This document shows, in pieces, positions 19,247 to 43,198 of a stretch of 64,000 nt of DNA. Under the pieces are notes generated by a model. That model did no database searches. It saw only the letters and a list, made by a program, of their open reading frames with translations, and was not told where the DNA came from. Source of the DNA: Candidatus Omnitrophota bacterium (GTDB taxonomy: Bacteria > Omnitrophota > Gorgyraeia > Gygaellales > Profunditerraquicolaceae); contig JAQURC010000001.1 of the NCBI GenBank assembly GCA_028715785.1, positions 140,766 to 204,765 on the forward strand. Direction: 5' to 3'. Position numbers and translations under genes: made by a program. Within the stretch, counting starts at the first letter, position 1, and each line of letters begins with the position of its first letter.

Positions 19247-19284
19247 CTGTAAGATTTAGCCAAATTTAGTTAAAATTTATTTTT

Positions 19285-19369
19285 GGAGAGGTGGCAGAGT
19301 GGTCGAATGCGCGCGCTTGGAGAGCGCGTGACTCGCAAGGGTCCCAGGGTTCGAATCCCTGCCTCTCCG
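19285..19369 (+). tRNA. tRNA-Ser(GGA), the integration target whose 3' end is repeated downstream
   Basis: Acceptor GGAGAGG/CCTCTCC, anticodon loop TTGGAGA, T-arm AGGGTTCGAATCCCT. The 3' 15–25 nt recur at 33971, 40589 and 43174. Confidence 0.75.
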
Positions 19370-19561
19370 TTGTCTTATTTATGCTAAGCAAAAGCATAGC
19401 AACATATACCCGCCAAAATTACCGCAACTCCTATTAAAATCAGTTAGTTACATTGCAGGAAAAGCAAAGCCATTTCAAGATATGACAATATCTCTGGAAT
19501 GGCTTTTTTTGCTTTCTGGTGGTGTTTTGGTGGTGTTTTTGGTGAAAGACCAGTGAGAAGG

Positions 19562-32607: not shown

Positions 32608-32790
32608 ATGATGGATAAAGAAATTCTTACGGTTGAAGATATAGCAAGCATATTGCATATTAGGCCCAATACGATACATAGCAAACGTTGGAAAGAAAGG
32701 ACTGGCTGCCCTTTAAATAAACACGGAAAAAGATTGCTGTCTCACGCTCCTGAATTTTGGAAGTGGTTTGAATCGCAGAGAAACCAATGA
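32608..32790 (+). CDS. xis: Excisionase / AlpA-family HTH DNA-binding protein
   Basis: MDKEILTVEDIASILHIRPNTIHSKRWKE matches the excisionase-family HTH. Overlaps the integrase start by 4 nt. Confidence 0.55.
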   Translation: MMDKEILTVEDIASILHIRPNTIHSKRWKERTGCPLNKHGKRLLSHAPEFWKWFESQRNQ

Positions 32791-33887
32791 AAAGATATGC
32801 TGGCGTAAAAGAAACCAAAGCAGGGAATTACCAGGTGAACTTTCGCCTAAACAAAGGCGGGAAGAGGTTCTGGGAGACTATCGAAGCCAATTCCATGCAA
32901 GAGGCTTATAACAAAAGGGCAGAGCTGATAACCCAGAGGCAAAAGGAACTACAGACTCCCGAAGCCGAGAAACTCCGTCTCACATCCGGATTCTCAGAGG
33001 TATGGAAAGGTATAGGTGACGGAATATTAGGAGAACGCAAGCCATGGAAGACTTATCTTCATTATCAAAAGGTCTTTTGGCGGATGTTTGATGATTTTAG
33101 AAATTTGGAATTTCCTTATGTGCAAAACCCAAGCCAATTGACCTTAGCATTCTTTGAGCAATATAAGAATTATTACTCTAGTGATTTAAATCGGCCAAAA
33201 GGATTAAGGGGGGAATTAATTTATGTTAAGGCAATTATGAAACGAATGTATAAGCTGGGTTTTTGCAGTGAGAAGATAATTAAAGATATAGCCGAAAACA
33301 TCAAAAAGCCAAGGCCGAATAAGAAACAATATCCTGAGATTACCAATAGCAAAATTAATGAACTATTAGCTTTTATAAAGAAGGATAAACCGGATTATTA
33401 CAGGCCAATTTACTTTATGAAGCGCACAGGCCGGAGAGTTGAAGAAACAACGCTTATTGAGAAAAGGGATGTTGTTTGGGATGGAATTAAACCCATTAAA
33501 ATCAATATACGCGCAGAAACGACTAAAACCAATGAATATGCTCCTTTGAATAAATTAGATCCAGAGCTAGAGATCCTTATTAGCCAGGCATATAAAGAGT
33601 CGTCCCGGCACAGGGCGCCTTATTTATTCCTCACTAAACGCAACAAGAAATTTAACCAGCGTAGAATTTGTGAGTATTTAAAAGAAGTCAGCGAAAAGAT
33701 TACAGGTGTAAAATTTACTTGTCACTACTTCCGGCATAGATATTGGGTTGAGTGCGGGAAAAACAATGTACCTATTATAGACGCTATGGCAATATCAGGG
33801 AACAAGGATTCAGATGTTGTGATTAATTTTTATAGCCACAGTACAAGTGAAGGTTTGGCAAAAGTGCTTGAGTTGACGAGGTTATAA
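32787..33887 (+). CDS. int: Tyrosine-type site-specific integrase
   Basis: C-terminal catalytic region with R...HYFRHRYW...Y. 366 aa. Lies immediately upstream of the att repeat at 33971. Confidence 0.85.
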   Translation: MKRYAGVKETKAGNYQVNFRLNKGGKRFWETIEANSMQEAYNKRAELITQRQKELQTPEAEKLRLTSGFSEVWKGIGDGILGERKPWKTYLHYQKVFWRMFDDFRNLEFPYVQNPSQLTLAFFEQYKNYYSSDLNRPKGLRGELIYVKAIMKRMYKLGFCSEKIIKDIAENIKKPRPNKKQYPEITNSKINELLAFIKKDKPDYYRPIYFMKRTGRRVEETTLIEKRDVVWDGIKPIKINIRAETTKTNEYAPLNKLDPELEILISQAYKESSRHRAPYLFLTKRNKKFNQRRICEYLKEVSEKITGVKFTCHYFRHRYWVECGKNNVPIIDAMAISGNKDSDVVINFYSHSTSEGLAKVLELTRL

Positions 33888-33970
33888 TGATATGATTACT
33901 GAATTAGGAGAGGTTTTTGGTGGTGTTTCTGGTGGTAAAAGGGGCTTTTTAAGATTAAATTCTAATGTAT

Positions 33971-33985
33971 CCCTGCCTCTCCGAT
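33971..33985 (+). repeat. attR-like direct repeat: 15-nt exact copy of the tRNA-Ser(GGA) 3' end
   Basis: ATCCCTGCCTCTCCG is identical to 19355-19369. It lies 84 bp after the integrase stop. Confidence 0.6.
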
Positions 33986-34387
33986 ATACTTTTTGGATTA
34001 TATTGGGGAATTGGCAGTTACGACACAACTTATTGAAAGTGGGTAAGTTGTGTTTGTTTTTATATGGTAGTGTTTGTTTCTTTTTTTCACTAATAGCGCC
34101 TAAAAGCCGTATAGTTCTGTAAAAACTGTATACCAAGTGTATACCTAAGGTACGGGAAGGGTGGGGACGTACACCATTCAGCCTACTTGATTCGGAAGGT
34201 CTTCATGTGTCATTAGAGGCCCCTGATATTACTTTGTGCCTTTGAGCGCTAAGGAAGTATATCTTCTGCCAAAGGAGATATATCCGGTAAGTGGTTGATA
34301 TTCCACTAGATGTTGTAAGGGTTGGGTAAGGATGAATAAAAGAAAGTAATTGACTTTTTTTGTAGTCATGGTAAGCTTACATTGATT

Positions 34388-34744
34388 ATGAATAGGAAAA
34401 CGTTAGGAGAGAGGATTCGAGAATTGAGAGCCCAAAGGGATTTCTCTCTTCGTGAATTCGCAAAAAAATTAGGTGGGCTTTCGGCGGCATTTCTATCTGA
34501 TGTAGAACTTGGCCGGCGCCATCCGTCTGAAAAGGTGCTAGTCGACATAGCTAGAGTACTTGATACAGCACTTGAAGAGTTACGAAACTATGATACTCGT
34601 GCACCGGTTGAAGATCTCAAACGTCTCGCGTCATCGAACCCTGCATATGGGCTTGCTTTTCGGAAATTAATTGATAAGAAGGTTAGCCCTGAAGATTTAA
34701 TGAAGCTTGCTGAAAAAACGTCCAAGAAAGACGGAAAAAAATGA
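34388..34744 (+). CDS. XRE-family HTH regulator (CapH-like)
   Basis: LGERIRELRAQRDFSLREFAKKLG....LSDVELGRRHPS HTH signature. Overlaps the downstream peptidase by 4 nt. Confidence 0.65.
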   Translation: MNRKTLGERIRELRAQRDFSLREFAKKLGGLSAAFLSDVELGRRHPSEKVLVDIARVLDTALEELRNYDTRAPVEDLKRLASSNPAYGLAFRKLIDKKVSPEDLMKLAEKTSKKDGKK

Positions 34745-35448
34745 AAAGTTTTCGCACAAAGGTAGGTCCATTCGCTGAAAGGCCCTATTATAAACTGAGT
34801 GATATTGAAAATATCTGTAACGATGAATTGCGAAAAGTTGATTTGTTGCCATCGGAACCATCACCAATTCGAATTGAGCGATTTATTGAAAAAAGATTTA
34901 GGATTTTTCCCTCTTATGAAGATTTACCAGAAGGTGTTCTAGGGTGTATTAAATTCGGCACTAAAGGCGTAGAGGAAATAAAAATTTCTAAGTTTCTTAG
35001 CGAAGATGGCGACAAGGTTTCCGAGCGGAGAATTAATACGACTTTAGCTCATGAAGCTGGCCATGGTCTTTTGCATGCACATCTTTTCGTGCTTGGCTTG
35101 CCATCTCAGTCTCTCTTTGAGAATGAAGTTGTAAATACCCCCACAATCCTTTGCAGGGAAGGGGCCGTCACTGGTATCGGCGGAAAAAGTAACTACGATG
35201 GACGCTGGTGGGAATTTCAGGCCAATAGGGCGATGGGCGCACTTCTGCTGCCCAGGTTCCTCGTGCAGAAAAGTACTGAAACGTTCCTTGTGTCTCGCGG
35301 CGCAATGGGTATAAAGACTATTGAAGCAAAGAACCGGGAGTCTGTAATTAAAACGTTGGTCGACGCGTTCGACGTTAATCCCGCCGTTGCTCGTATCCGC
35401 ATTGACGAAATGTATTTCAGGGACAATAAAAATCAGTTGACATTCTAA
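34741..35448 (+). CDS. ImmA/IrrE-family zinc metallopeptidase (CapP-like)
   Basis: HEAGHGLLH (HExxH) in a DUF955/COG2856-type context, paired with an upstream XRE HTH. Confidence 0.7.
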   Translation: MKSFRTKVGPFAERPYYKLSDIENICNDELRKVDLLPSEPSPIRIERFIEKRFRIFPSYEDLPEGVLGCIKFGTKGVEEIKISKFLSEDGDKVSERRINTTLAHEAGHGLLHAHLFVLGLPSQSLFENEVVNTPTILCREGAVTGIGGKSNYDGRWWEFQANRAMGALLLPRFLVQKSTETFLVSRGAMGIKTIEAKNRESVIKTLVDAFDVNPAVARIRIDEMYFRDNKNQLTF

Positions 35449-35465
35449 TTTTTTTTTGCTAAAAT

Positions 35466-35506
35466 GTAAGCATCGTCAGCTTACGAAATAGTAACTTTTC
35501 TATTAT
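35466..35506 (+). promoter_or_regulatory. Palindrome GTAAGC-N7-GCTTAC overlapping a -10-like TATTAT upstream of the Ubl operon
   Basis: Seen in sequence at 35466-35484 and 35501-35506. Strong ribosome-binding site AGGAGGAGG at 35536-35544. Confidence 0.35.
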
Positions 35507-35548
35507 GCAGAAGACCCGGAAGGTTAAGATAAAAAGGAGGAGGTAAAA

Positions 35549-35794
35549 ATGGAACATGAAGAGCATCATCAAGGCGAGCAGAAGTATTTTGTCAATATTG
35601 AGGGTACGGATTATCCTTGGCATGAAGAGGACATTCTTACTGAAGAAATAAGGAAGCTGGGTAATTTGCCTCAGGATCTGCCTGTTGTTGAGGAATTTCC
35701 TGATGGTACTGAAATAACTCTTAGGGCAGGAGAGGTTGTTCATTTGAAGCCCGGTCATAGATTCGGTCGCGCCCCAAAGTTTAAAAGGGGCTAA
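35549..35794 (+). CDS. Small ubiquitin-like protein (multiubiquitin / BilA-like) ending in a C-terminal Gly
   Basis: 81 aa ending ...KFKRG-stop. Immediately followed by E2-like, JAB and E1 genes. Confidence 0.55.
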   Translation: MEHEEHHQGEQKYFVNIEGTDYPWHEEDILTEEIRKLGNLPQDLPVVEEFPDGTEITLRAGEVVHLKPGHRFGRAPKFKRG

Positions 35795-35797
35795 AGG

Positions 35798-36184
35798 GTG
35801 GAAGAAAGAATCGCTGAAGAAGTCCGCATGCTGAAGGATAAATATCCAAGCCTTCAGCATGGGGAAGGCTATGCATGGGTAATGATCCCGGATTTTAATT
35901 TACCGGAAGGATATAACCGTAAAAAGACAAGACTACTTTTTTTAATTTCAGGTTCATATCCACGTACATCCCCAGATAATTTTTATGTTGATGCAGGATT
36001 GAAGTTCGATAACAACAATCTACTGACAAATTACAGTGAGGGAGCTCAGGTACCGATAGAAGGATCGTGGGGTTGTTTCTCTTGGCATCCTGAAATATGG
36101 CAGCCGGTAGCCGAAATTAAAAAAGGAGATAACCTACTTACATTTATGAAATCTGTGAACATTAGGTTACGGGAGAAGAATTGA
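35798..36184 (+). CDS. E2-like ubiquitin-conjugating-fold protein (prokaryotic E2 family)
   Basis: 128 aa. Candidate catalytic Cys in WGCFSWHPEIW. GTG start. Its stop overlaps the JAB ATG. Confidence 0.5.
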   Translation: MEERIAEEVRMLKDKYPSLQHGEGYAWVMIPDFNLPEGYNRKKTRLLFLISGSYPRTSPDNFYVDAGLKFDNNNLLTNYSEGAQVPIEGSWGCFSWHPEIWQPVAEIKKGDNLLTFMKSVNIRLREKN

Positions 36185-36732
36185 TGCGGGTAATCCTGTT
36201 TTTAACAGAACAACAATACAACCTCGTACGGTCGCATCTTTTCAAAGGAAAAAAGGAGCAGGGGTGTTTCCTGTTTGTCAACAGTATCATGGATGCCCAG
36301 TTAATTGAGCTTAAAGTAAAGGATGTCCATAAGGTAGAAGCTGGTGGCTGGAGTTATCAAAGCGGATGTCATCTAGAGCTTGAAGAAAAAGAGAAAGTGA
36401 AGGTAATGTTAAAAGCACGAGAATACGGCTGCGATTTGATTGAATGCCACTCTCATCGATTTGGCGGATTAGCCACTTTTTCCCCGAGCGATATACATGG
36501 CTTGAGTGAATTTGTCCGATACATTTGGTGGAAATTGCCGGGTAAGATATACGGTGCCGTAGTATTTACTAAGAGTGATGTTCGGGGACAGATTTGGCTG
36601 CCTAAACAGGAGAATTCCGTATTTATAAGTGAAATCAAGGTTATTGATAATAAGGGCAACTTTAAAAGATTATGCGGCGTTCCTATTAAAAAATCTTTTT
36701 TTAACATCATTAAGAGGCGGAATAATGATTGA
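36184..36732 (+). CDS. JAB/MPN (JAMM) metalloisopeptidase
   Basis: Canonical JAMM motif ECHSHRFGGLATFSPSD (HxHx7Sx2D) plus an upstream Glu. Confidence 0.8.
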   Translation: MRVILFLTEQQYNLVRSHLFKGKKEQGCFLFVNSIMDAQLIELKVKDVHKVEAGGWSYQSGCHLELEEKEKVKVMLKAREYGCDLIECHSHRFGGLATFSPSDIHGLSEFVRYIWWKLPGKIYGAVVFTKSDVRGQIWLPKQENSVFISEIKVIDNKGNFKRLCGVPIKKSFFNIIKRRNND

Positions 36733-37609
36733 ATCACGGGAGCAATTCTCTAGGCAAATTCTAGCCTTTGGTGCAGAAGGACAAGCAGCCATTATGAATA
36801 CTAAGATTGGAATTGTTGGTTTGGGTGGCATGGGGTCATGCGTTGTGCAAATGCTAAGTCATTTAGGAATCCAGGAATTTATGCTTCTTGACGATGACCG
36901 AGTTGAAAAGTCGAATTTGAATAGGCTTGTTGGCGCTACAAGAGAAGATGTCATAAATAAGACCCTCAAGGTTGAGGTGGCCCAACGAGTCATTAAATCT
37001 ATAAATCCTGAAGCCAAGATAACTTCGCTAGGGAATCTGCGTACTGCGGAAGCCATAGAAGTCCTTTCGACTTTTCCTGATGTGATTTTCGGTTGCGTAG
37101 ATAATGATAGCGCGCGTATGATCCTTACTGATCTTGCAGCAGCATATAAGAAGACATTGGTTGATTGTGCAACTGAAATAGATTTAAAAGGTGATAATGG
37201 CATAAGTTTCGGGGGCAGGGTAGTTGTCGCTCAGCCCGGGGACTTCTGTTTATGGTGCGCAAATCAGATTGATCCGCAAATAGCAAATGAGGAGCTTGAG
37301 AGCGAGCAGGAAAAATCTTTTCGTCGGCATCATGGTTATGGCTTGGGAGCGGAAGTAGTGGCTCCTGCAGTGATGTCTTTAAATGGGGTTATAGCTGGTT
37401 TGGCCGTTACAGAGTTTATTATGTTAATTACCGGCATGAGAAAGCCGGAACGTATGCTGACTTATAAGGGAACGCGAGGAATTGTTGTTGCGACTAAAGA
37501 TGTTAAGAAGCCGGGATGTTTAGTGTGCGATTCATTAATCGGTAAGGGAGATAAGGCAGGTTTAAAGAGATACTTAAGGTCAAATTTACCAAAAGATTTG
37601 CCCGAATAG
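36725..37609 (+). CDS. E1-like ThiF/MoeB-family adenylyltransferase
   Basis: Rossmann IGIVGLGGMGS, LLDDDRVEKSNLNR, two CxxC pairs (CLWC, CLVCD). Overlaps the JAB gene by 8 nt. Confidence 0.8.
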   Translation: MIESREQFSRQILAFGAEGQAAIMNTKIGIVGLGGMGSCVVQMLSHLGIQEFMLLDDDRVEKSNLNRLVGATREDVINKTLKVEVAQRVIKSINPEAKITSLGNLRTAEAIEVLSTFPDVIFGCVDNDSARMILTDLAAAYKKTLVDCATEIDLKGDNGISFGGRVVVAQPGDFCLWCANQIDPQIANEELESEQEKSFRRHHGYGLGAEVVAPAVMSLNGVIAGLAVTEFIMLITGMRKPERMLTYKGTRGIVVATKDVKKPGCLVCDSLIGKGDKAGLKRYLRSNLPKDLPE

Positions 37610-37725
37610 AATAGGGATGCATATAAATAACAAGAAAGGAGCTAATAGCGGCCAAGAAAAACTTCCATAAAATTCCTAAGTTAATTATCCTAAAATTAAA
37701 TAAAATTGCTTCTGATCAGATTGTT

Positions 37726-38604
37726 GTGGGTTGCGTTGAAACTTTTTCAGCAAACGATATTAAGCAGGGATTATTAGGTCATTTATCTATTAAACTAACT
37801 GATTCCGGCTTATCTTTTCTCCCTAGTATTTTACCGTCTCAAAATCGTGGGAAATACAGTGGCCGTAATAAAAATGGTTATGAGATAAAAAGGCGGGATC
37901 TACCCATGGAATCTTATACCCATAGTGTTGAGGCGCCTAATTATGGAGACAGAGGAAGGGGAACTCACGATGTAAGTTGGACTAAGGAGAGATATCAAAA
38001 GGAATTTCACGCACCCGAATCTCTAAAGATTAGAATTGAATCTCCTAATAATGCTCTGGGACAGGATAAATATGTGATTAAGTTTGAGGTAGAAGAAGTC
38101 ATGGGTAAGAAATCTCGTGATTTTAAGGAGCGGCTACTGAAAAACTTAAATATTTTACAGGAAAACATTGGCTCATGCGATGTTCTGCCTGCGGGAAGGA
38201 GTCTCGAGGAATATTTAGAAACATTGCGTGTTTCGTGGGAAATATTGCCTTCAGGAACACGCGAAGAGACGTTGGCAAGGCTAAGCAAGGGGCGGATTCT
38301 TTCAGAACAAGAGCGGAAAGATATGGAAGATCGATTTGATTTTTTTCAGACTTTAAAACCATCAAAGTTTGTTTATGGTATGAGTGGATCAGAAAGGTAT
38401 CTTGGTGCTTTATTACGCGATGATCTTGTTGTTTTTGAAAATATGGAATATGGGAATGCTATCTATGTGATGTTTGAAGATTGGCAGACTTTGAGCCAAA
38501 AAAGCCGAGTTGAATTACTCTCAGGAAGGTATGGAAAGAATTTTGAGCGAATTGTGCATAGAAAAGGATGGAAGGACAATGTAAAAAAAACAATAAAGAC
38601 ATAG
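37726..38604 (+). CDS. Hypothetical protein downstream of the E1 gene (no recognisable motif)
   Basis: 292-aa ORF with a GTG start. Could be an accessory or effector component. Confidence 0.4.
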   Translation: MGCVETFSANDIKQGLLGHLSIKLTDSGLSFLPSILPSQNRGKYSGRNKNGYEIKRRDLPMESYTHSVEAPNYGDRGRGTHDVSWTKERYQKEFHAPESLKIRIESPNNALGQDKYVIKFEVEEVMGKKSRDFKERLLKNLNILQENIGSCDVLPAGRSLEEYLETLRVSWEILPSGTREETLARLSKGRILSEQERKDMEDRFDFFQTLKPSKFVYGMSGSERYLGALLRDDLVVFENMEYGNAIYVMFEDWQTLSQKSRVELLSGRYGKNFERIVHRKGWKDNVKKTIKT

Positions 38605-38816
38605 AGCTATCATAGAAAGGGGTTAAGATGTCGATAATTATTTCAGTTAGAACTCCCTAATGGGGTTAGGTTTAGTATTAATGGGATAGAAGATTGGTTG
38701 AAAAGCAGGAAAGTTAGGGAAGATGTAGTTATAAATTTAATCAAAACACTTTTATTCCTTAAAGATTGAGGTATAATAAATTAAAGTTCATTCCTTTTTA
38801 ATGAAAGGAGTTCAGA

Positions 38817-38993
38817 ATGGCAACTCTAACGTTAGGTAAAAGACAGCGACCTTTAGTAAAAACTTTTCATGAAGCTAAGAAAGACATAGTTGTAAGAAGC
38901 TATGTTCCGGCAGGTATACAGAGGTTATCTTCGACTTCTGTTAGTACTGGTAAACTAGTTATTGTCATGAAAAAAATAAGTAGACATCGGTAA
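38817..38993 (+). CDS. Possible small ORF (58 aa)
   Basis: ATG preceded by AAAGGAG. Below the ORF-track length cutoff. No homology call possible. Confidence 0.2.
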   Translation: MATLTLGKRQRPLVKTFHEAKKDIVVRSYVPAGIQRLSSTSVSTGKLVIVMKKISRHR

Positions 38994-39013
38994 GAGTATA
39001 ATTACTCTCTTGT

Positions 39014-40471
39014 ATGAAATATACTAATAATGATGAAAAAAGATATTTTCCGAAAGAAAAGAATGAAAATAAAGACTATAGAACAGAATGGAGAAGAGAT
39101 TTTGCTCGAATAATCCATTCTTCCTCATTCCGAAGACTGCAAGGAAAAACTCAATTATTTCCTGGTAACGAAAGTGATTTTTTCAGAAACCGCCTCACCC
39201 ATTCATTAGAAGTAGCTCAAATCGCAAAATCTATAACATTAAAACTAAATAACGACCTAAGGAAGTCGAGAAAAAAATATTTCATTGAACCCGATATCGT
39301 TGAAATTGCTGGTCTTGCCCATGACATTGGACATCCTCCTTTTGGTCATTTCGGTGAAGAAGTGTTAGATAGGGGCATGGTGGATTACGGAGGATTCGAA
39401 GGCAATGCTCAAGCTCTCAGGTTATTAGCTACTGTTGAGAAAAAAACTAATCCTTCCTCGACACGTTATGGTATTCTGGATAATGGAAGAGATACTCGTG
39501 TTGGTTTAAATCTTACAGCCCGTTGCTTAGCGTCAATTATAAAATATGACCAAGAGATTCCCAGAGAAAGTACACAAAGAAATCATCTACTCGAGACCGG
39601 AATTATAAAGAAAATTTCGCCTATTAAAGGTTACTATCAAGAAGAAAAAGCCAAAGTTGATTTTATTAAAGCTGCTGTTGTTGGAAAAACAAAACTTACA
39701 AAAGGATTGAAAACAATTGAATGCCAAATAATGGATCTTGCAGATGATATTGCCTATTCGACATATGATCTTGAAGATTCATTCAAAGCGGAATTTATAA
39801 AACCCATTGATATTATGTCTGTTAATGACAATATTCTTGATGAAGTTGTGAGAGTAATAAATGAGCGTTTAAATATAAATTTGAATAAAGGTAATATTCA
39901 AGAAGTAATCTATGAAATATTTAAAGATATATTTGAGGTTCCTTACGCAATAAAAGGTATTTTGAAAAATCCGTCTAAAAAATTTCTTCAGAATCTACAT
40001 AACTATGGATTGAGAGATGCAAATGTGTCCTCAAATAGGTTTGCTCAAGACGGATATTATAGGACAGATCTTACATCTGGTCTCGTGAATAGTTTTATTC
40101 AAAGTATAGAAATTAATCATATTGATAAAGAAACCCCAGCCCTGTCAACTATAAAAATCAATCCGAAACACCTGTTGGAAATTGAAATCTTAAAAGTATT
40201 AACTTATGAATGTCAAATTCAATCTCATAAACTCAAGATTGTTGCGTATAGGTGCAAGGATATTATTGAGTTTATCTTTAATACATTGATGGCAGAGAAA
40301 GGATTTCAATTACTTCCTTCAGATTTTAAATCAATTTATGAAAAGATTGATTCAAATAAAAGACCTCGCATCATATGTGATTTTATAGCAGGGATGACCG
40401 ATAGATACGTGCTTGAATTTTATGGAAGGTTAACTTCTGAAAATCCTCAGACTATTTTTAAACCTTGTTGA
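39014..40471 (+). CDS. dGTPase-family HD-domain triphosphohydrolase
   Basis: FRRLQGKTQLFP....RLTHSLEVAQIAKS....AHDIGHPPFGH matches the dGTP triphosphohydrolase HD motif order. Confidence 0.8.
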   Translation: MKYTNNDEKRYFPKEKNENKDYRTEWRRDFARIIHSSSFRRLQGKTQLFPGNESDFFRNRLTHSLEVAQIAKSITLKLNNDLRKSRKKYFIEPDIVEIAGLAHDIGHPPFGHFGEEVLDRGMVDYGGFEGNAQALRLLATVEKKTNPSSTRYGILDNGRDTRVGLNLTARCLASIIKYDQEIPRESTQRNHLLETGIIKKISPIKGYYQEEKAKVDFIKAAVVGKTKLTKGLKTIECQIMDLADDIAYSTYDLEDSFKAEFIKPIDIMSVNDNILDEVVRVINERLNINLNKGNIQEVIYEIFKDIFEVPYAIKGILKNPSKKFLQNLHNYGLRDANVSSNRFAQDGYYRTDLTSGLVNSFIQSIEINHIDKETPALSTIKINPKHLLEIEILKVLTYECQIQSHKLKIVAYRCKDIIEFIFNTLMAEKGFQLLPSDFKSIYEKIDSNKRPRIICDFIAGMTDRYVLEFYGRLTSENPQTIFKPC

Positions 40472-40474
40472 GCT

Positions 40475-40542
40475 TGTGCCCAGAATGTGTTCATTCGAGT
40501 GAAAACAATCTGAAGAAACTGTACGATTTCTGTATACCAAAT
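40475..40542 (+). repeat. Conserved ~68-bp block, copy 1
   Basis: GTGCCCAGAATGTG...AAACAATCTGAAGAAACTGTACGATTTCTGTATACCAAAT. Nearly identical to 43060-43126. Confidence 0.6.
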
Positions 40543-40588
40543 CGGTTGTATTAACGTAACTTGTTGATTATAATTACCTTGTGAGTGT

Positions 40589-40613
40589 CAGGGTTTATTT
40601 CCCTGCCTCTCCG
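40589..40613 (+). repeat. attR-like repeat: 25-nt imperfect copy of the tRNA-Ser(GGA) T-arm/acceptor 3' end
   Basis: CAGGGTTTATTTCCCTGCCTCTCCG versus the tRNA's CAGGGTTCGAATCCCTGCCTCTCCG. Confidence 0.65.
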
Positions 40614-42962: not shown

Positions 42963-43059
42963 TAGAAAGATTTGAGGCGGGATTTCGCTAGATAAAAGAT
43001 TAAGGTGTTCAAAAACTCGACTAATTAGGGCTGGGTTTAACCATTCAGTCCTTTTGTTT

Positions 43060-43126
43060 GTGCCCAAAATGTGCCCAAATAAAGGGAAACAATCTGAAAA
43101 AACTGTATGATTTCTGTATACCAAAT
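43060..43126 (+). repeat. Conserved ~67-bp block, copy 2
   Basis: GTGCCCAAAATGTG...AAACAATCTGAAAAAACTGTATGATTTCTGTATACCAAAT. Confidence 0.6.
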
Positions 43127-43173
43127 GAGTTTTGCAGCTATAACCTCTTGCTATAATAGCGTTTGGAAAAGGC

Positions 43174-43198
43174 GGGTTTAGTTCTCCCTGCCTCTCCG
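43174..43198 (+). repeat. attR-like repeat: imperfect copy of the tRNA-Ser(GGA) 3' end
   Basis: GGGTTTAGTTCTCCCTGCCTCTCCG. Confidence 0.65.

Follow-up and report, generated by a model that had tools for sequence, protein, structure and literature searches.

A split ubiquitin-like conjugation operon without BubE, probably of the Bub type, in an att-bounded segment of an Omnitrophota genome

Two described families of bacterial operons for the conjugation of ubiquitin-like proteins (Ubls) offer the closest comparisons for the locus presented here, a four-gene Ubl–E2–JAB–E1 operon of Candidatus Omnitrophota bacterium. Bub operons are divided into Type I, encoding BubAB (a Ubl–E2 fusion), BubCD (a JAB–E1 fusion) and BubE, and Type II, encoding BubA, BubBD and BubE; it has been stated that "All Bub operons possess bubE" (PMC11601596). 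In Type I, BubB carries the Ubl as an oxyester on a Ser residue, together with a His and an Asp (Ye et al., PMC11601596). Type I/II BilABCD operons (Bacterial ISG15-like; Chambers et al., PMC10557695) consist of four separate genes in the order Ubl–E2–JAB–E1; their E2s possess a conserved Cys (plus His) and their E1s have the domain composition IAD-AAD-CYS. Anti-phage action has been demonstrated for Bil only, not for Bub operons (PMC13373217). The operon under study lies in a window of 64,000 nt, by which we mean the whole stretch of DNA analysed (assembly GCA_028715785.1, contig JAQURC010000001.1, forward-strand positions 140,766 to 204,765); coordinates below count from its first letter. 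It probably specifies a stress-inducible Bub-type Ubl conjugation system in which BubA, BubB, BubC and BubD are fully split into translationally coupled genes and BubE is missing. The operon and the regulator pair preceding it comprise the following genes:

34388–34744, + strand: CapH-like XRE-family helix-turn-helix (HTH) protein, 118 aa from ATG (alternative TTG at 34382)
34741–35448, + strand: CapP/ImmA-like Zn-metallopeptidase, 235 aa, HEAGH
35549–35794, + strand: Ubl (BubA-like), 81 aa, C-terminus ...APKFKRG
35798–36184, + strand: E2 (BubB-like, Prok-E2_E family), 128 aa
36184–36732, + strand: stand-alone JAB/JAMM metallopeptidase (BubC-like), 182 aa
36725–37609, + strand: E1 (BubD-like, ThiF-family adenylating enzyme), 294 aa

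A preliminary description of this DNA had proposed a Ubl–E2–JAB–E1 conjugation operon 3′ of an XRE-HTH and HExxH peptidase pair, and family matches bear the proposal out. The genes and tight couplings that it listed agree with the open reading frame (ORF) list of the window, where the regulator pair, the four operon genes and a 292-aa gene behind them are all found on the + strand, and with direct reading of the DNA. The capH and capP genes overlap by 4 nt (ATGA), a gap of 3 nt separates the Ubl stop codon from the GTG start of the E2 gene, the E2 stop and the JAB start share TGATG, and the JAB and E1 genes overlap by 8 nt. Searches with hidden Markov models (HMMs) matched Multi_ubiq (below cut-off), Prok-E2_E, the PADLOC JAB model and ThiF, and the nearest solved relatives of the four proteins are Bub or multi-ubiquitin proteins, in line with the folds and motifs first proposed. 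No NCBIfam model was found for the Ubl, the E2, the JAB protein or the peptidase, and Rfam gave nothing in the window between 33800 and 43400.

The E2 protein matches Pfam Prok-E2_E (PF14462; 1.9e-11, above cut-off), which corresponds to the 6E family of Bub E2s (PMC11601596). Its sole match in the PDB is Citrobacter BubB, found at 1.6e-7 by the single sequence and at 1.2e-9 when a profile built from 18 homologs was used. In these close homologs (58–92% identity) residues D60, W91, G92, S95, W96 and H97 are invariant, and the only Cys of the protein, C93, is replaced by Tyr in 5 of the 18. An exhaustive search with the E2 profile yielded 725 clusters at E ≤ 1e-3; 149 family representatives from this search were aligned with the window E2 and a fragment of Citrobacter BubB, giving 151 sequences. 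The C93 column of this alignment is hypervariable, and the S95 column contains Ser in 132/151 sequences and Cys in 12/151. BubB residues W-S333-R-H335 stand opposite F94-S95-W96-H97, and BubB D299 opposite D60; the resulting Asp-Ser-His combination is present in 51/151 E2s, including Citrobacter BubB itself (D299, S333, H335). We prefer this register because it also superposes the most conserved W-x-P motif (W101, P103), and because F-S-[WF]-H is shared by Ubl–E2 fusions included in the alignment. The best reading is that D60, S95 and H97 are the predicted catalytic residues and that C93 is not catalytic. The small Cys-containing E2 of the preliminary description does have its one Cys, but this residue is not conserved and the protein does not qualify as a Cys-based E2.

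Two further features of the E2 family can be mentioned. In about half of its members the D60 column is occupied by Tyr instead of Asp, and His is missing from the H97 column. The 12 sequences with Cys in the catalytic-Ser column (P0192, P0212, P0234, P0237, P0254, P0261, P0280, P0292, P0294, P0295, P0296 and P0299) mostly read F-C-x-H, and some natural relatives may run on thioester rather than oxyester chemistry.

The E1 protein is a single 294-aa adenylation domain matching ThiF (1e-42). The Rossmann GxGxxG and the two CxxC pairs noted earlier were found again (the former as GLGGMG) and are conserved. Its best PDB match is Citrobacter BubCD (1.3e-23), ahead of ThiF, MoeB and Uba4. The segment HHGYGLG, containing Y205, aligns with ERGYITG of BubCD, whose Tyr is Y370 (the numbering offset of the BubCD chain is 2, checked against D104). 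Among 44 E1 relatives, Y205 and R67 are each conserved in 43 and D126 in all 44; a crossover-loop Cys occurs in only three, at non-conserved positions. The window E1 has neither a conserved crossover-loop Cys nor a CYS domain, and its PADLOC BilD match is weak and partial (7.7e-6 over residues 52–168). According to the best reading of these alignments, the enzyme would use Tyr Y205 in place of a catalytic Cys. A pattern scan of IMG/VR with the E1 alignment revealed no viral relatives. The conservation of D60, S95 and H97 and the variability of C93 in the E2, combined with an E1 Tyr unaccompanied by a conserved loop Cys, suggest a Bub-type Tyr-to-Ser oxyester relay, and the system is best read as a predicted Bub-type oxyester pathway rather than a Cys/thioester Bil-like pathway.

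The Ubl, searched as a single sequence, matches Pfam Multi_ubiq at 1.1e-4, below the Pfam cut-off; a profile of 14 orthologs matches PDB entry 9d59, "Multi-ubiquitin domain-containing protein", at 5.9e-12. The protein is predicted to be a single beta-grasp domain of the Multiubiquitin family, an assignment resting on profile homology to solved multi-ubiquitin structures. Its C-terminal R80-G81 is invariant in 14/14 orthologs, and the Ubl appears to be made already mature, with no need for C-terminal processing. One relative (L004) encodes a tandem (di-)Ubl with the C-terminus RGLL. Ahead of the beta-grasp domain the window Ubl has a His/Glu-rich N-terminal tail, MEHEEHHQGEQ (window 35549–35585), whose length and composition differ among orthologs.

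The JAB protein is matched by the PADLOC JAB model (5e-6); Pfam gave no match for it or for any of its 72 homolog clusters. Its JAMM motif reads E25...H89-S-H91-x8-S100-x2-D103, with these residues invariant in 36 homologs, so the motif recognized in the preliminary description is present although its spacer is x8, not x7 as written there. The AlphaFold2 model (predicted local distance difference test 88.9) has as its top Foldseek match in the PDB the JAB domain of Citrobacter BubCD (3.8e-13, template modelling score 0.79), followed by BRCC36, Rpn11, JAMM1, Cap3 and AMSH. Since the Ubl needs no processing and BubE is absent (see below), the stand-alone JAB protein is most likely the deconjugating or editing enzyme of this variant. 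The JAB protein of a close relative (L002, 8387–8935; the same as L013; E2 82% identical) has H-S-N for H-S-H at the zinc site and may be inactive.

No operon protein or tested neighbour matched PF20137 (DUF6527). Six BubE genes of distant loci were used to build an HMM, which was applied to 60 fetched loci, designated by L numbers, and to the six-frame translation of the window. It recovered 11 BubE genes among the 60 loci, all of them in the more distant ones; an ORF of L044, the positive control, is PF20137 at 6.6e-24. None was found in the six frames of the window (best E 0.095), in L001–L033, the loci with E1s most similar to that of the window, or in the archaeal Methanocella loci L037–L039 and L046. 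BubE is absent from the window and from the whole window-like clade. Nor are the Bub fusions (Ubl–E2 plus JAB–E1, or E2–E1) found here, the four ORFs being separate with stop codons between them. Relatives show every intermediate, having either a Ubl–E2 fusion with separate JAB and E1 genes or separate Ubl and E2 genes with a JAB–E1 fusion. Four-gene cores like that of the window are also present in Omnitrophota, Planctomycetota, Nitrospinae, Thermodesulfobacteriota, Verrucomicrobiota and a Vogelbacteria metagenome-assembled genome (MAG). Relatives of the E1 and JAB proteins are also encoded in archaeal MAGs and genomes of Methanocella, Thaumarchaeota, Nanoarchaeota and Thermoproteota (L032, L037–L039, L041, L046; P0363); of these, the Methanocella and Thaumarchaeota loci have separate E2 and JAB–E1-sized genes.

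In its mechanism the system most resembles Type I Bub, as represented by BubAB-BubCD-BubE of Citrobacter sp. RHBSTW-00271 (Ye et al., PMC11601596), and in its layout it resembles BilABCD. With the former it shares the Prok-E2_E type of E2 with BubB as sole PDB match, the E1 lineage, for which BubCD is the best PDB match, a JAB fold nearest to the BubC domain, a Multiubiquitin-type Ubl with terminal Gly, the Asp-Ser-x-His site of the E2, the invariant crossover-loop Tyr and missing catalytic Cys of the E1, and a gene order equal to the Bub domain order A-B-C-D; Bub operons are also often under CapH+CapP or CapK+CapS. Unlike in Type I Bub, each of the four modules has its own gene, the Ubl is one apparently ready-mature beta-grasp domain that would need no BubAB cleavage, BubE/DUF6527 is missing from the window and its clade, the E1 keeps both CxxC zinc-site pairs whereas Citrobacter BubCD lacks the first, and the JAMM spacer is one residue longer. 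Common to BilABCD and the window are four separate genes in the order Ubl–E2–JAB–E1, location in defence islands and, in some Bil operons, CapH/CapP control. However, the window E2 lacks the conserved Cys of Bil E2s, its E1 is one 294-aa adenylation domain and not IAD-AAD-CYS, and HMM and PDB searches favour Bub over Bil. Lacking the BubE and fusions of Bub as well as the Cys features of Bil, the operon is placed in neither type. The two families also differ in demonstrated anti-phage activity, which belongs to Bil; the preliminary description, which had called Bil/Bub-type operons antiviral as a whole, was right for Bil only. An antiviral role for the operon described here is a hypothesis that draws only on the island context and the kind of regulator, and its output may be anti-phage defence or a general stress response.

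Upstream of the Ubl gene, the regulator pair is accompanied by the following sites:

34350–34380, + strand: putative capH promoter, with TTGACT at 34350–34355 and the 10-bp palindrome GTAAGCTTAC at 34371–34380
35437–35465, + strand: operon promoter TTGACA-17-TAAAAT with TG extension, 11/12 promoter matches
35466–35484, + strand: inverted repeat GTAAGC-N7-GCTTAC, directly after the operon promoter

The HTH protein matches Pfam HTH_3 (4.4e-14) and PADLOC capH (9.3e-12 over residues 4–115), and its PDB matches include Deinococcus DdrO (2e-6 to 3e-5). The peptidase carries HEAGH, followed downstream by WWEFQANR...LLP, which contains E-x-x-A-N. Its PADLOC capP match (4.1e-7) covers only model positions 19–123 of 242, with 124–242 unmatched, Pfam Peptidase_M78 scores 17 bits (0.0053) against a cut-off of 22, and a PDB sequence search produced no match, solved CapP and IrrE included. 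Because the protein is too short for a GAF domain and shows no similarity to solved CapP or IrrE, the term "CapP-type" is a working analogy. From the CapH/CapP-type switch of the preliminary description we retain the HTH and its adjoining HExxH protein, with the CapP-type label of the GAF-less peptidase kept as an analogy only.

The motif GTAAG-N0-12-CTTAC occurs twice in the 64 kb, both times at these promoters (0.35 expected). The palindrome GTAAGCTTAC lies directly 5′ of the capH ATG and is a candidate autoregulatory operator of capH; GTAAGC-N7-GCTTAC is a candidate CapH operator over the transcription start of the operon. A Planctomycetota contig (L014) contains a co-directional capH-capP-Ubl-E2-JAB-E1 unit whose upstream flank is unrelated to that of the window. 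Its capH and capP orthologs match at 2e-60 and 1e-124, respectively, and it is the only other locus with this CapH. The same palindrome precedes capH in L014, and the motif is found at the same two positions (operon site 1807–1825); it is absent from the 59 other loci. This pattern supports the prediction that the HTH protein represses both promoters. No Shine-Dalgarno sequence precedes the capH ATG (34388), which follows by 8 nt the palindrome overlapping the likely −10 element, and the capH mRNA may be leaderless.

Regulators of the operon vary among relatives. Other HTH and M78 pairs were detected at L004, L006, L016, L019, L024 and L033, and in L023 and L026 an M78 peptidase was detected without a matching HTH. 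In L002/L013 and L012 a CapK/CapS-like pair is located downstream of a type III restriction-modification (R-M) system; the L002 pair consists of 291-aa (weak HATPase_c match) and 184-aa proteins and adjoins terminase and ParB-methylase genes. This variety matches the published regulator modularity of Bub, where CapH+CapP are present in 31% of operons and CapK+CapS upstream of 231 operons (PMC11601596, PMC13373217). Comparison systems for the window pair are CapH/CapP (regulators of CBASS, the cyclic oligonucleotide-based anti-phage signalling system, in E. coli MS115-1 and Thauera; Lau et al., bioRxiv 10.1101/2022.04.27.489752), DdrO/IrrE and ImmR/ImmA. Like CapH/CapP, the pair consists of an XRE HTH protein (capH match, DdrO-like) and a HExxH putative M78-type peptidase whose gene overlaps by 4 nt, and inverted-repeat sites are predicted in the promoter of the adjoining operon. 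Unlike CapH/CapP, the peptidase is a GAF-less protein of 235 aa that shows no sequence match to solved CapP or IrrE, and the pair and the operon run in the same direction instead of diverging.

We propose the following working of the system. The CapH-like HTH protein would bind GTAAG/CTTAC half-sites at its own promoter and after the operon −10 element, silencing Ubl–E2–JAB–E1, as suggested by where the motif lies and by its retention in L014. The HExxH peptidase would be activated by a signal of stress, by analogy DNA damage or single-stranded DNA of phage origin, and would then cleave the repressor; this step is modelled on CapH/CapP, DdrO/IrrE and ImmR/ImmA, and its sensor is uncertain because the peptidase has no GAF domain. 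Once expressed, the E1 would adenylate Gly81 of the Ubl and then take it onto crossover-loop Tyr205 as an oxyester, by homology to Y370 of Citrobacter BubCD. The Ubl would move to Ser95 of the E2, aided by His97 and Asp60, and from there to target lysines, by homology to S333, H335 and D299 of BubB. Deconjugation or editing, the part suggested for BubE in classic Bub operons, would fall to the JAB protein, and processing would be its task only in those relatives whose Ubls are tandem or extended at the C-terminus. The whole cassette is cargo of an integrase-less segment in a tandem island array at tRNA-Ser(gga).

Several observations weigh against this picture. The oxyester chemistry is deduced from homology alone, and both pairwise and profile HMMER alignments set BubB S333 opposite G92 and not S95, the pairwise register being shifted by 3–4 residues relative to the family alignment; the equivalence of S95 and S333 comes only from the 151-sequence alignment and the conservation pattern. 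The regulatory part is affected by the peptidase, whose match to the capP model is confined to the N-terminal half and which has only ~65 residues after the E-x-x-A-N motif, leaving no room for the GAF domain of CapP/IrrE, and by the shortness of the operator motif, since two or more matches appear in 7/100 shuffles. BubE, present in all described Bub operons, is missing here, and the pathway may therefore differ from Bub in unforeseen ways. Finally, Bub is itself without a demonstrated anti-phage phenotype (PMC13373217).

The operon is situated in a low-GC region with four exact copies of TCCCTGCCTCTCCG, the 14-nt 3′ end of tRNA-Ser(gga), at 19356, 33970, 40600 and 43185 (0.02 expected). They bound three tandem segments, and the features relevant to this arrangement are:

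19284–19370: tRNA-Ser(gga)
32787–33887: tyrosine recombinase (Phage_integrase 1.9e-9), ending 83 nt short of the 33970 copy and accompanied by an excisionase-like gene
33970–33983, + strand: left att-like repeat, exact copy of the tRNA-Ser(gga) 3′ end; left segment boundary
37645–38604, + strand (ORF from GTG 37726: 37726–38604, 292 aa): orphan-family neighbour, not a component of the system
39014–40471, + strand: dGTP triphosphohydrolase of the anti-phage dGTPase kind (PADLOC dGTPase 8.8e-119)
40600–40613, + strand: right att-like repeat, exact copy of the tRNA-Ser 3′ end; right segment boundary
43185–43198: last att-like repeat, exact copy of the tRNA-Ser(gga) 3′ end

Segment 1 contains AbiEii, SNF2, NOV_C, a Dam methylase, a Cas4-like protein, DUF2130, a xis-like gene and the tyrosine recombinase, and is the only one with xis and int. 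Segment 2 (33984–40613) carries the regulator pair, the Bub-like operon, the orphan gene and the anti-phage-type dGTPase, and segment 3 an NTP_transf_8 pair and a PDZ protein. As the preliminary description had it, the operon belongs to an att-bounded, integrase-less segment: the repeats are exact and no integrase is found inside 33984–40613. The neighbouring integrase was considered as a counterexample and rejected, because an exact att copy lies between this gene and the segment; segment 2 could be mobilised in trans by this recombinase. The dGTPase (NCBIfam TIGR01353 335.7 bits, above cut-off; antiphage_dGTPase 369.8 bits, just below the cut-off of 400) is an independent defence gene in the same segment. 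A 74-nt repeat (81% identical) occurs at 40474–40547 and 43058–43131, ahead of the 40600 and 43185 copies, respectively.

Segments flanked by att sites but devoid of an integrase, stacked in tandem at a tRNA gene, are known from the accretion of integrative and conjugative elements (ICEs) and cis-mobilizable elements (CIMEs). Segment 2 is CIME-like in its exact bounding tRNA-Ser 3′-end repeats, in having no recombinase inside and in its neighbouring xis+int element with the same att core. It differs in having no origin of transfer (oriT) or relaxase and only defence-type genes as cargo.

Alternative readings of the conjugation proteins were weighed against the Bub-type one. A canonical Bil-like thioester system with C93 as the catalytic Cys of the E2 would be consistent with the BilABCD order of four separate genes, with the location of C93 two residues from S95 in the same loop, with the HMMER pairwise alignment, which sets C93 beside the position of BubB S333, and with the Cys of 12/151 family representatives, although the latter stands in the S95 column. 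We consider it very improbable, and reject Bil membership, since C93 is not conserved (Tyr in 5/18 close homologs, the column being hypervariable family-wide), PADLOC gives no BilB match and only the weak, partial BilD match (7.7e-6), and the 294-aa single-domain E1 contains neither a CYS domain nor a conserved loop Cys. Still less credible is a sulfur-carrier or cofactor pair of the ThiF/MoeB and ThiS/MoaD kind, or a degenerate, non-functional operon. In favour of these readings, neither of the MoeB/ThiF-type CxxC pairs has been lost from the E1, ThiF and MoeB models give the E1 good scores, and the JAB protein of the close relative L002 has lost the second His of its HSH; against this stand the tightly coupled E2 and JAB genes, catalytic motifs that are all intact and conserved across phyla, best matches to Bub proteins rather than ThiF, and a defence-island context with no thiamine or molybdopterin genes.

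The Bub-type reading also assigns the regulator pair to the operon and leaves out the gene that follows it, and both decisions have alternatives. The pair could be an ImmR/ImmA-type switch governing excision or transfer of the element, with the Ubl operon as unregulated cargo; it has an att copy ~400 bp away and xis/int nearby, and the short, GAF-less peptidase is like ImmA. We regard this as unlikely because the same pair (2e-60, 1e-124) precedes the same operon in L014 after an unrelated upstream flank, an att copy and a terminator-like hairpin lie between the integrase and the pair, and in the window and L014 alike the half-site motif covers the Ubl operon promoter at its start, a conserved footprint that argues against a switch serving merely the mobile element. 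As for the 292-aa protein, the preliminary description had suggested an additional component or effector, which could functionally stand in for BubE: the gene is 3′ of the E1 gene in the same orientation, the stretch between the two showed no terminator-like site, the fold of its product is unknown, and BubE sits downstream of E1 in classic loci. This suggestion did not hold up, and a fifth component seems highly unlikely to us. No member of the family is present in ~50 Bub-like loci (44 genome loci and L001–L006), and the gene 3′ of E1 differs from locus to locus among relatives. The family comprises at least 553 clusters, ~10x the close E2 (35) or JAB (72) families in the same kind of search, and elsewhere follows LexA-like S24 repressors (L007, L009, L058), a CBASS operon (L060) or ThsA-Macro/ART/Macro genes (Thoeris-like; L010), or lies between UvrD and an R-M system (L056). 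Its members normally have 318–335 aa. In the window copy the 26–27 N-terminal codons that the 292-aa reading lacks can be read in frame 5′ of it, preceded by the gene's own Shine-Dalgarno sequence (AAAGGAG); the expected ATG, however, is lost and reads ATA-GCG, and translation from GTG 37726 would shorten the first helix and strand. The gene stands outside the Ubl system and represents a large orphan family whose members occur next to unrelated defence genes.

The Bub-type system proposed here extends a recently described family; it is unsurprising in kind and overturns nothing in current understanding. In our estimate there is an even chance that it represents a third type of Bub pathway, with split BubA-B-C-D, no BubE and JAB as the sole deconjugase, widespread in uncultivated bacterial phyla; it would include Omnitrophota, Planctomycetota, Nitrospinota, Thermodesulfobacteriota, Verrucomicrobiota and a candidate-phyla-radiation lineage. 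Such a type would have been overlooked because Bub operons have been catalogued via DUF6527, and catalogues based on this domain miss a clade. The split form may be the unfused ancestral state that gave rise to the BubAB and BubCD fusions. BubE is dispensable in at least one lineage, which bears on BubE function, and the conserved promoter and operator pair provides a directly testable regulatory hypothesis. Bub operons are the only known Ubl cascades with oxyester (Tyr/Ser) rather than thioester intermediates, and their biological role is open. A variant without BubE and without fusions is a simpler test bed, consisting of four small, separately expressible proteins, and with a Ubl that would need no processing and a single peptidase, the role of the peptidase becomes cleanly assignable. 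The operon would thus offer a minimal four-protein system for oxyester Ubl chemistry and JAB function.

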